From an uncultured Alphaproteobacteria bacterium (GTDB lineage Bacteria > Pseudomonadota > Alphaproteobacteria > Rs-D84): a stretch of 57,912 bases of DNA. Positions 50,856-57,049 of this stretch are shown here, one piece after another. A program made the position numbers and the translations under genes. Location: positions 1 to 57,912 of the forward strand of contig CALXPA010000001.1 in NCBI GenBank assembly GCA_944390185.1. Direction: 5' to 3'. Position 1 is the first letter of the stretch. Each line of letters starts with the position of its first letter. The notes beneath the pieces were generated by a model that was not told where the DNA came from, did not search any database, and saw only the letters and a list, made by a program, of their open reading frames with translations.

Positions 50856-53800
50856 ATGAATTTGCTGAAAAAAACGGTTGGATTTATGGCGGTATTCTGC
50901 GTAATACCGGCGGCGATTGCGTTGACGGCACGCCCCAGTGTGGTCACCACGGTATCGACACGTTTGCCATCGATGGCGGCATATTTGAACGCGGTGACGA
51001 ACGGCACGGCGGCAACAACGGGCACGACGACGGCAAATTTATTGGACAATGCGGAATGCATCGACGCATACACCGATTGCCTAAGCCAGTCTGACGTTTG
51101 CGGTTCTGATTTCGAAGAATGCACGACCAGTGTTCTGTTTCATGCCCAAATGCCAAAGTGCCTTAGTGTACTGGGCCAGTGCAGTGCATCTGGGGTAAAC
51201 GCGCTGTTCGGGACATCGTCCACAACCGCCCTGTCAACAGTCAAGAGCACTAATGAATATGACGAGGTTACAGAATACACATACCCCACGGCGGGCAGTG
51301 TGCTGGGGCAAATGATTGATGGTGCGCGCATTGCAAATATGTATGATACATCAAATTGTGTTCGTCGTTATACAACGTGCTTGCAGGCATCTAATGTATG
51401 TGGTGCGGATTTTGAATTGTGCACAACAGATCGTGAATTTAAAAAACAGCGGGTGTATTGCGATTCCGTATTGGCGCGTTGCCAGTCAGATGGAAAAATA
51501 GAATTATTCGGTTCTACGAATATTAATGCTTCCCCAATAGGGGGGCGCATTGGTGAAATGATTGCCGATGGTGAGGCACTGGCGGCGGTGAACGCGGTGT
51601 CAACATGTTACCGTGTGGCGGACCAGTGTATATTGAACGCATGTGCGCAAAATCCGTACAAGTGCATCGCCGGTTCGTCCAGAACAGTCGCCATGTTGGC
51701 AGATGCAATCAAAAGTGCCGATCCTGTACTTAGTGATGAACAATTGCGCAACACATACGATACATTAACCAACTCTGAAATCGAGGGGTATATCAAGACG
51801 GCATGTTTTGACACAATTGGCGCCAATCAATATTGCTTTATGACTGCTAATGGTGATGTGCCCAGTCAGGCGGATTTATCGGACCCCATAGAACAAGAAT
51901 TGGTTTTCACAAATATATTTCAATCGCGCTGGAATGAATCTATGCGCAGCCAGCTGGACACCATAATGCAGGACTTTGACCAACAGGCAAAATCCGATTG
52001 TTCAGACACCATATCTGAATGCGTTATGCGTACGTGTGGTGGCGGTTCTGGTCCGGCATGTTACGCATTGGTATTCCGTGGCGATGGTGAAGACACGATT
52101 AATAAAGAAAGTGTGTATGGTGACTTAAAGTCAGGATGTGCGGCGATTGTGAATACAGATGCCAACTGTAAATATGCGGCCGCAAATACGGATTCTGTTG
52201 GCGGGTACGTGTACACATATAACAGCGAGGGGGCATTTGATAAACTGTTCCCCGAATATAATAGCAGTTCGTCCTCAGACGATCCTATTGGGGTTATTGC
52301 ATGGTTAAACGCGTCCCTGTCGACCAGTTATAATACTGCCGCACTTAACCAGATGAAGGTGAATTGTGAAAACGCGGCAAAAAGTTGTATCAAGACCATG
52401 TGTGGTAACGAATACACCAATTGCTATCGTAACCGTACAGATATGGCTTCAACGCTGACCAATACAGGTAATTCGGCGTTTGATGACAGTATGAACAGGG
52501 TTGGCGGTGTTCTGGATTATACGATTGTTTTGGGGCTGTGCATGGATTCGGTTAAAAATGCATCTGCGTGTGAAGAATATTTGGATGTAGAGGCTGCGAA
52601 AAATATGGATGCAGCGGAAGCGGAAACCGCACAATGGGGCGCATCGTCCGCCAGGGTGCATAGCAATTGGTTGGATGCAGGGACTTATAACTCTGGAATG
52701 ACCCAATTAACCGACGACGCTGGTAACTACGTCTGTCGGGCCGATGACGGCAGCCGGGGTCCGTGCAATCAAATGAATAATGAGACCCACCAGTATTATG
52801 ATGAACCGGTGTATGTCAGTCTGGATGAGGCCGCGCGTGACACGGCGGCCAAGAGTGTGTTTACGAACCTGTTGTTCGACATCGAAAAGGAAGCCCAGGC
52901 GATATACAATGCCAAGCTGACCCAGGAACAGAATATGTGCATGGCGTCGAACAGTGGCGGCATTATGGGCGCGGGGGGTATGGAATCTACGTTCGTATGG
53001 GCAAAATTGAACAACAACCGTGTCCCAGACAACTATACCATGGATGGATTGAAATCCAGCCAGTTCAAGGCCAGTAACGAATTGTACGGTTCGTTCTGTG
53101 CGGTGCGTGTAACGTTGCAGTCTGATGATGCGACCGTTCAAAATGCCTTGCGTGGCAAAGAATGGGCGACCACATACTTCGCAACGGGTGATACGTTCGC
53201 CTGCGGCAGCTGGATACCCCAGGGTCAGTTGAACCAATTGGCCGATGCTGCCTTCGCTGACAAGACGGAAAATCAAAAAACCTTGCGCACATGGCTGGGC
53301 GTGTTGGGTGGTCTGGGTGGCGCCGTGGGTGGTGCGTACCTGGGGGCCGGGATTGCGGATGGTTCTGTGTTCGGTAAACTGACCGGGCTGCAAAAGCAAG
53401 ACACAAAAACAACATTTAATGCAACGACAGTACAGAACACGATTACGAACTATTTGCAGGGTAGCATCGAGGCCTCAGAGAAGATCACTGATGACTATGA
53501 TGATATCAATCAATTGGAAGAGTGGATATCCAATGTGGACGCCGGTTGGAAAATGGTCAAAGATCAGCTGAGAAACGTCGCCAATATCGACAAGCAGATT
53601 GTCAATCTTGCCGACGGTGCGGTCGATGACTGGACCAAGGCCGTCAAAGAACAGCAAAAATGGCTGGAAAACCAGGAAACGTGTGATGCGATGGAGGAAG
53701 GGAAAAGGGAGAGGAAAAAATCCTGTGACGAAGAACGGCCAGATGTTCAGACGTTGATCGATGCGGCGGCCGATGCGGAAACACAACTAGGTAAGTTGTA

Positions 53801-57049: not shown

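Follow-up and report, generated by a model that had tools for sequence, protein, structure and literature searches.

What kind of proteins are encoded by two adjacent and unusually cysteine-rich open reading frames (ORFs) of the uncultured gut bacterium Candidatus Enterousia (Alphaproteobacteria, order Rs-D84), and do the two belong together? The ORFs occupy positions 50856-57049 of contig CALXPA010000001.1 (assembly GCA_944390185.1), and the whole contig of 57,912 nucleotides is referred to as the window. Gene A (50856-54062) encodes a predicted exported protein of 1068 amino acids with 39 cysteines (3.7%) in this sequence and 36 conserved cysteine positions, and gene B (54224-57049) encodes a predicted exported protein of 941 amino acids with 49 cysteines (5.2%) and 30 conserved positions. 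Both genes, and all features assigned to them below, are on the forward strand. The other 45 ORFs of the window contain 0-2.9% cysteine. A preliminary description of this DNA, made from the letters alone, had reported two tandem large cysteine-rich ORFs, and both proved to be real, as their homologues are conserved and all the cysteine modules quoted there are present in place; for instance, residues 477-498 of B (CIAALDEC-MRDDMVC-GDNYTKC) map exactly to 55652-55717. As the best explanation, we propose that A and B are separate families restricted to Rs-D84/Enterousia, and that they act as Sec-exported, extracytoplasmic, disulfide-bonded structural or adhesive proteins of the envelope. This explanation is tentative, and we give it slightly less than an even chance. 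Members of Rs-D84/Enterousia occur widely in the guts of humans and animals, and they are thought to live at the expense of other cells. Few lineage-specific genes of these genomes are larger or better conserved than A and B, which makes the two prime candidates for a partner interface or a specialised envelope.

Predicted export and cysteine pairing

The N-termini of A and B, as read from the sequences and alignments, contain a basic K/R n-region, a hydrophobic core and an A-x-A motif, in agreement with the signal peptides proposed earlier for both proteins. In the case of A, the signal peptide covers approximately residues 1-22 (50856-50921; MNLLKKTVGFMAVFCVIPAAIA/LTARP), and this N-terminus is nearly invariant among homologues. 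In the case of B, it covers approximately residues 1-20 (54224-54283; ..FAPFACA/WGA), and the homologues read ..FAFA/DG. Both proteins are thus predicted carriers of Sec-type signal peptides and putative substrates of signal peptidase I. Lipoprotein anchoring of either protein was rejected, as the cysteines within the signal peptides are not conserved (50% conservation for Cys15 of A and 3% for Cys19 of B) and no lipobox is present.

The spacing of the cysteines was evaluated by testing the enrichment of C-x6-C pairs against 5000 sequence shuffles. A contains 13 such pairs, compared with 1.4 ± 1.1 after shuffling (maximum 6), and B contains 11, compared with 2.5 ± 1.5 (maximum 10). Most of these sites are located within predicted helices in both proteins. 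An i, i+7 pair in a helix places two thiols approximately two turns apart on one face, which is a poor geometry for chelating a single ion, and on the predicted helices this spacing would suit the stapling of a neighbouring helix. Nearly all of the 36 conserved cysteines of A and the 30 of B are invariant.

The number of cysteines was then counted in 184 full-length A homologues and 120 B homologues, which are related and hence are not independent trials. Two Gly-rich hydrophobic segments near the C-terminus divide A into an ectodomain, an inter-segment region and a tail. The ectodomain contains an odd number of cysteines (31, 33, 35, 37 or 39) in 173 of the 184 homologues, the tail contains a single cysteine in 181, and the sum of ectodomain and tail is even in 176. 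Mature B contains 28, 30, 32, 34, 38, 42, 44 or 48 cysteines, and the count is even in 115 of 120 homologues. This parity pattern persists across homologue classes with different cysteine counts. Because the totals are even and cysteines are gained or lost by twos, the cysteines appear to be fully paired, and those of A and B are best read as forming nearly complete sets of disulfides outside the cytoplasm; of the disulfide-stabilised extracellular or host-facing role suggested in the preliminary description, the disulfide-stabilised, extracytoplasmic part is supported by these counts. Approximately 18 disulfides in A and 15 in B would be implied. As the odd count of the A ectodomain is balanced by the tail cysteine, the ectodomain and the tail would be in the same compartment and linked to each other. 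Such a linkage fits a hairpin formed by the Gly-rich segments, and it would be just as expected of a protein that crosses no membrane.

Two clade-restricted families with one module in common

Searches of metagenomes yielded 853 homologues of A and 1020 of B. Among the matches listed, which aligned along most of the protein or almost all of it, A homologues were at least 50% identical and B homologues at least 58% identical. With A as query, an exhaustive profile search across 1.84 billion (1.84e9) proteins returned no more than 256 clusters at 50% identity; thus, family A is narrow. The A ORF was detected in 218 species genomes when one genome per species was scanned, and the loci of the best 80 of these A-positive genomes were fetched. 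The A-positive set contains a closed chromosome of 958,618 bp. The best 80 are metagenome-assembled genomes from the gut labelled as Alphaproteobacteria, Candidatus Enterousia, uncultured Rickettsiales or unclassified (proteobacterium, bacterium), with the sole exception of L018, a contig (CAVGNU010000002.1) titled Bacteroides fragilis. Despite its title, this contig is collinear with the pilin-like/RluD/A/LRR/C/D locus of Enterousia, and it is probably mis-binned.

No match above threshold was obtained in Pfam, NCBIfam or PHROGs for A, B, their sub-regions or the distant A homologues, and sequence profile searches of the PDB with A and B returned only coiled-coil noise. AlphaFold2 models, which were built from alignments of 70 (A) and 72 (B) sequences, gave no Foldseek match against the PDB at E ≤ 0.001; the A model returned generic four-helix bundles only, and the B model returned nothing. 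None of the sequence sources containing homologues names either protein, and no paper on A or B proteins was found in the literature on Enterousia and Rs-D84. The preliminary description had not recognised the family either, and A and B are two clade-restricted families new to description, although of a broadly known kind, namely disulfide-rich exported envelope proteins of bacteria. A phage origin of A and B was also considered and was rejected for want of a PHROG match.

Several known systems resemble A and B in part. The Hcp proteins of Helicobacter, a gut-associated proteobacterium, are secreted helical-repeat proteins (Sel1-like repeats) in which regularly spaced cysteine pairs staple helix pairs. 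However, A and B are much larger, are not built of a regular short repeat and differ in repeat length and cysteine spacing, and searches for Sel1 (PF08238) or TPR-type repeats gave no match in A and only a faint TPR_IPO5 match (E 0.047) in B. The twin-Cx9C / Cx3C CHCH proteins carry cysteines at fixed spacing on two antiparallel helices joined by paired disulfides, an arrangement that A and B may share, but A and B use C-x6-C, are bacterial and predicted to be Sec-exported, and are approximately 1000 amino acids long, with no homology detected. The chlamydial proteins OmcB and OmcA, whose disulfides provide mechanical stability to the envelope, are similar to A and B in that they are envelope proteins exported by Sec, rich in cysteine (about 4-5%) and made by a diderm with a reduced genome and a dependence on partner cells. 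In contrast to these proteins, to which they are unrelated in sequence or fold, A and B are predicted to consist mainly of helices with cysteines spaced i, i+7, and neither matched the Chlamydia OMP6/OMP3 families at E ≤ 1 in Pfam and NCBIfam. Moreover, unlike in the chlamydial comparison, peptidoglycan and rod-shape genes, including those for MreB and RodA, are retained in Enterousia (PMC12306168).

The relationship of A to B was examined at the level of whole proteins and of single modules. BLASTP gave an E value of 4e-4 over approximately 100 residues, and the comparison of full-length profiles gave a 30-column match with a probability of only 4.75%. When residues 460-505 of B were compared by hhalign with the two copies of a module of A, M1a and M1b, the probabilities were 92.4% (P 5.1e-7, 29 columns) and 86.5%, respectively, although a cysteine-rich composition can inflate such scores. 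A hidden Markov model of the shared module, built from A and B, was run against all locus ORFs; its hits included distant A homologues absent from the model, and in the eight sources listed all hits belonged to the A and B families. These comparisons support one module of 29-35 residues common to A and B and nothing else detectable. The module family proposed earlier for the two proteins is therefore retained for this single module (92%, P 5e-7) and is lost for the remainder, as the full-length profiles are unrelated. In B, the common module corresponds to residues 469-501 (55628-55726; QNTYDAKGCIAALDECMRDDMVCGDNYTKCLDP). The submotif VCG[SAD][DN][FY]xxC is common to both proteins as originally noted, occurring twice in A (VCGSDFEEC and VCGADFELC) and once in B (VCGDNYTKC).

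Anatomy of the two proteins

The translation start of A was assigned to the ATG at 50856 and not to the upstream in-frame GTG at 50847, because the homologues all begin with MNLLKK. A promoter-like site (TTATCA-16-TATACT with a TG extension) was located at 50801-50828 on the forward strand by a consensus scan only, and nothing resembling a terminator was reported between the stop of RluD (50751) and the start of A. The first module of A, M1a, covers residues 55-120 (51018-51215) with the pattern C-x6-C-x6-C-x6-C-x12-C-x6-C followed by LFGTS, and the second copy, M1b, covers residues 155-220 (51318-51515). As M1a and M1b matched each other by hhalign with a probability of 99.1% (E 6.5e-19), M1 is clearly tandem-duplicated within A; the distant A homologues contain a single copy. 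The following helical region (residues 235-580; 51558-52595) comprises, by cysteine spacing, three C-x6-C-x4-C-x6/7-C ... C-x9-C units. Residues 250-450 are the best-modelled part of A, being all helical with a predicted local distance difference test (pLDDT) score of approximately 70-86. Homology among the three units (M2a, M2b and M2c) was also considered, but it was weak and had no statistical support in profile comparison. A mixed alpha/beta subdomain (residues 610-790; 52683-53225), which was assigned from low-confidence predicted secondary structure, adjoins the hydrophobic segments, and all five of its cysteines (C627, C637, C695, C748 and C783) are invariant.

The C-terminal part of A begins with Gly-rich hydrophobic segment 1 (residues ~813-834; 53289-53357; WLGVLGGLGGAVGGAYLGAGIA), which was assigned by hydropathy and is kept in all homologues, including the distant ones. 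Segment 2 (residues ~1002-1023; 53856-53924; VGSIIGGVVGAGATATIVALAA) is followed by an invariant RDIQ. Between the segments, a hypervariable coiled-coil region that is predicted to be helical (residues ~835-1000; 53358-53855) shows column conservation of 0.22-0.42, compared with 0.65-0.96 across most of the remaining protein, and its length ranges from 74 to 321 amino acids among homologues. The two GxxxG-type segments resemble the hairpins of glycine-zipper anchors (Rick_17kDa_Anti / Gly-zipper_Omp, SlyB-like), but they are split by this coiled coil and not by a tight turn. The tail (residues 1024-1068; 53925-54059) has a single conserved cysteine, C1048, which together with 35 conserved cysteines in the ectodomain gives the total of 36. 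Distant members of 850-1000 amino acids retain one M1 module, both Gly-rich segments, the variable region between them and the tail cysteine. Between A and B, a hairpin resembling an intrinsic terminator is present at 54082-54121 on the forward strand, with a stem of 12 bp (54082-54111) and then T7; the separate termination of the two genes, previously placed at 54083-54118, is thus in agreement.

In B, the signal peptide is followed by a low-complexity region rich in Ser, Thr, Ala and Arg, which extends to approximately residue 147 (54284-54664) and is variable and predicted to be disordered. An Arg-rich motif (residues 148-206; 54665-54841; consensus NTVGRNARVEAASINNNPAVRRAGLTLRPSTAEVGGRATIAGTDIQTGSNI) then shows column conservation of 0.89-0.92, and a family scan of this sub-region gave no match. 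The helical core, in which cysteines are predicted to staple the helices, covers residues 230-716 (54911-56371) and was defined by alignment, predicted secondary structure and conservation. Small cysteine-rich modules, which are conserved and predicted to form beta-hairpins from the alignment and secondary structure, cover residues 737-790 (56432-56593) with the pattern C-x-C-x2-G[FY]-x4-6-C. The C-x-C-x2-G[FY] pattern is EGF-like in resemblance only, since no EGF-type profile of Pfam matched the C-terminus of B and Foldseek returned nothing at E ≤ 0.001. For residues 716-941, a sub-threshold match to DUF5874 was the only one obtained (19.4 bits against a cutoff of 27.1). The C-terminal extension (residues 803-935; 56630-57028) consists of four repeats of C-x7-9-C-x4-5-C-x6-8-C, and most of its cysteines occur in just 3-7% of the homologues of B, while a few reach 18%; this four-repeat extension is a recent, lineage-specific addition to B. 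A Trp follows the third cysteine in two of the four repeats, and the four repeats are confined to the close relatives of this strain (P0121 and P0122). Homology among the modules within B was also considered and had no statistical support in profile comparison. By hydropathy, B has no hydrophobic anchor.

Gene order and competing explanations

The genes upstream of A are in the order pp451-pp404-pp450-zf175-u169-RluD in nearly every locus whose contig reaches upstream. In the best 80 loci, RluD is adjacent to A in 73, the pilin-like genes are present in 72, and 5 show a disrupted linkage; of the 78 informative Enterousia loci, 73 have A downstream of the pilin-like genes and RluD. The six genes overlap or abut one another, and A starts 105 bp later. 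Pilin-type N-termini (G/ASLTE, G/SMLVE and G/ASMIE) were found in three large proteins of approximately 390-450 amino acids encoded at 44881-48744 (forward strand) and in a protein of 171 amino acids encoded at 42334-42849 (reverse strand). The prepilin-like nature ascribed earlier to the upstream genes is only a weak resemblance of the N-termini, whose matches to the GspI, GspK and GspH models and to that of the prepilin N-terminal domain were all below threshold. Within the pilin-like/RluD block, two small genes at 48753-49786 are conserved in 72 of 80 loci; one encodes an MJ0042-type zinc-ribbon membrane protein of 175 amino acids and the other a secreted protein of 169 amino acids with 4 cysteines and a Gly/Ser-rich linker. 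Genes for a pilus ATPase, a platform protein or a secretin were not detected in the window or in the fetched loci.

The linkage of A to a prepilin-like operon, which had been noted for the window, is therefore general in Enterousia (RluD in 73 and pilin-like genes in 72 loci) but does not extend to the loci of three distant A homologues. One of these follows MiaB and YbeY-Lnt. Another, P0299 (L086 13561-16083, JGI metagenome 3300002469), precedes TcpQ and a secretin gene, homologues of which were not found in the window or the Enterousia loci. The third, P0387 (L087), is located between phage-like genes (terminase, head-tail connector, lysozyme and capsid) and DnaB, with coordinates given as 4939-9843 and 14635-18932.

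Of the 80 fetched loci, only 3 have B in the vicinity of A: B is directly downstream of A in L022, upstream of A in L070, and approximately 5.8 kb from A on the opposite strand in L060. Its usual site is after rpmA (L27) and before dnaQ/uvrD, as in three genomes (L082-L084) with the block PPDK-PagL-unknown-L21-L27-B-dnaQ-uvrD. In the case of L081, the order is LeuRS-thioesterase-B-LRR-C-D-E. The closest relative of the window, L088, in which A is 84% and B 96% identical, has the order RluD-A-B-C-D-E, and the A-B-C-D-E order probably continues past the end of this window. The tandem arrangement first described is thus present in the window and in L088, but it is not general. The adjacency of A and B is a derived state of this sub-lineage, produced by recent rearrangement, and not a conserved pair.

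Downstream of A in most relatives are cysteine-rich exported genes of three further lineage-specific families, namely C (543-831 amino acids, 22-30 cysteines), D (~240-260 amino acids) and E (~390-480 amino acids, 9-17 cysteines), none of which has a Pfam match. C and D follow A in 28 of 80 loci, 17 of which have an LRR gene separating A from C, and E is downstream of A in 38 of 80. Such cysteine-rich exported genes recurrently end up adjacent. Examples of C, D and E were located at L088 13108-17589, L008 15055-17690 and L009 18138-19520. Past uvrD in L082-L084 (~15100-20400, reverse strand), four conserved, unannotated genes of approximately 400-480 amino acids are followed by a fifth of approximately 430 amino acids on the opposite strand, and these five genes likewise have no Pfam match.

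As A follows pilin-like genes so regularly, it may be an accessory component or substrate of a filament system of the type IV pilus or type II secretion kind, or the protein at its tip, and it would act in the periplasm or at the end of a fibre formed by the three large pilin-like proteins. The short 105-bp interval without a predicted terminator, the pilin-like N-termini (G/ASLTE, G/SMLVE) with their sub-threshold GspI, GspK, GspH and prepilin matches, and the TcpQ and secretin genes adjoining the distant homologue in L086 all point in this direction, and a filament role would account for the conservation of the A ectodomain. However, the housekeeping gene RluD intervenes, so that A may have stayed near the pilin-like genes simply because gene order changes slowly in these small genomes. 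The linkage is also interrupted in 5 Enterousia loci and missing in all three distant ones, no genes for the remaining machinery were found in the window or the loci, and type IV pili were reported in the Rs-D84 survey only for another lineage (PMC12306168). PilY1/PilC resembles A by position only, as a large Sec-exported protein downstream of several pilin-like genes. Unlike PilY1/PilC, A has no beta-propeller or von Willebrand domain (no PilY1 match in Pfam or NCBIfam, and A is predicted to be mostly helical), and in its case unrelated genes intervene and the linkage is lost outside Enterousia. A filament role of A, although the main rival to the preferred explanation, is therefore regarded as unlikely. 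Still less probable is the view that A and B are paralogous partners acting as a tandem pair, with an adjacency that reflects shared, operon-like function. Their proximity in the window, L088, L022, L060 and L070 and their common module would fit such a pair, as would the LRR-C-D-E genes beside B in L081, since the same genes follow A in 17 of 80 loci. The rarity of this proximity, the position of B between rpmA and dnaQ/uvrD in three other genomes, the strong terminator between the genes and the unrelated full-length profiles stand against it, and A-B as a conserved unit is largely refuted.

A further explanation, that the cysteines are functional thiols or ligands of metals or Fe-S clusters instead of structural disulfides, concerns both proteins. 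Invariance of cysteines is expected of ligands as well, no Dsb gene is found among the window ORFs, and oxidative folding is not guaranteed in an anaerobic fermenter without respiratory chains (PMC12306168). On the other hand, the counts are even and step by two across the 184 and 120 homologues, i, i+7 spacing in helices is ill-suited to chelation, and both proteins carry predicted Sec signal peptides. Metal binding is also argued against by the absence of close cysteine spacing and the near absence of His (0.1-0.3% in A and B): A has no cysteine pair closer than C-x4-C, and B has no CxxC and has C-x-C only in the beta-hairpin modules. Accordingly, ligand or thiol functions are considered the least probable of the explanations. 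Under the preferred explanation of disulfide-bonded envelope proteins, A and B would leave the cytoplasm via Sec and fold beyond it, with practically all cysteines engaged in disulfides. The ectodomain of A, of approximately 785 residues, would consist mostly of helical bundles in which i/i+7 cysteines on one face staple neighbouring helices, and its end would be a hairpin in which two Gly-rich hydrophobic helices flank a rapidly evolving coiled coil. This hairpin would tether A, and the C-terminal tail would return to the ectodomain side and be tied there by one disulfide. B would have no anchor, and would combine a disordered, positively charged Ser/Thr/Arg-rich N-terminus and the conserved Arg-rich motif with a helical core stapled by disulfides and, at the C-terminus, small cysteine-rich beta-hairpin modules that vary in number. 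The module common to both would be ancient, and B would have moved into the row of cysteine-rich exported genes (A-B-C-D-E) in this sub-lineage. Judged from the literature on lifestyle only, the two proteins may be stable, protease-resistant structural or adhesive envelope components of an obligately partner-dependent bacterium that lives in a protease-rich gut.

Several points weigh against this explanation. The AlphaFold2 models are of low confidence, with a mean pLDDT of 53.5 for A and 50.6 for B, and because they are poor, the description of the fold rests mainly on secondary structure. The Gly-rich segments of A are weakly hydrophobic (Kyte-Doolittle 1.4-2.0), and the Pfam glycine-zipper models (PF05433, PF13488 and PF13441) gave no match in A, unlike the OmpA lipoprotein at 21146-21793, which matches a Pfam glycine-zipper with E 5e-10. 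The cysteine parity of the inter-segment loop of A is mixed, with 131 even and 53 odd counts. Both ectodomains are very highly conserved, which is atypical of antigens displayed on the surface and would be compatible with a site in the periplasm too. The localisation, the disulfides and the function of A and B are all putative. No Dsb-type oxidoreductase was found in the 58-kb window (~6% of the genome; 46 of 47 listed ORFs and one overlapping minus-strand ORF), and disulfides would have to form in an anaerobic gut bacterium reported to lack respiratory chains (PMC12306168). The question of the oxidant arises from these two observations together: how would oxidative folding be powered for approximately 18 and 15 conserved disulfides in a fermentative anaerobe? 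As a more speculative extension, which we consider doubtful, Enterousia may build a disulfide-bonded and possibly cross-linked layer or attachment organelle from at least five lineage-specific, cysteine-rich exported families (A-E), with A anchored by its Gly-rich hairpin, displaying the coiled coil and contacting the partner cell. If this were true, A-E would occupy approximately 1% of a genome of less than 1 Mb, and a route of oxidative folding would be needed without a respiratory chain. The two families are specific markers of the clade, and their interest is mostly for work on reduced-genome gut symbionts and on anaerobic oxidative folding.

Enterousia is placed in the order Rs-D84 with genomes of less than 1 Mb; the order is fermentative, without a TCA cycle, respiratory chains or flagella, and its lifestyle was inferred to be obligate symbiosis or parasitism on other cells (PMC12306168). 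The organism is regarded as a diderm, because LpxD, Skp, LptD, LptF/G, BamB, SurA, TolC and OmpA-family proteins, as well as FabZ, are encoded by window ORFs. A VirD4/TraG-type coupling protein of type IV secretion (T4SS-DNA_transf, E 3.5e-51) is encoded at 34588-36810 on the reverse strand in this genome of less than 1 Mb. The ORF at 39280-39801 is a shadow ORF of FabZ. The contig end after B (57050-57912) is non-coding and filled with repeats, including many copies of short palindromic GTCATCCCGG...CCGGGATCC units, and the assembly probably ends right after B because of these repeats. The same stretch contains a duplication of approximately 387 bp, in which 57175-57295 and 57562-57682 are 89% identical.

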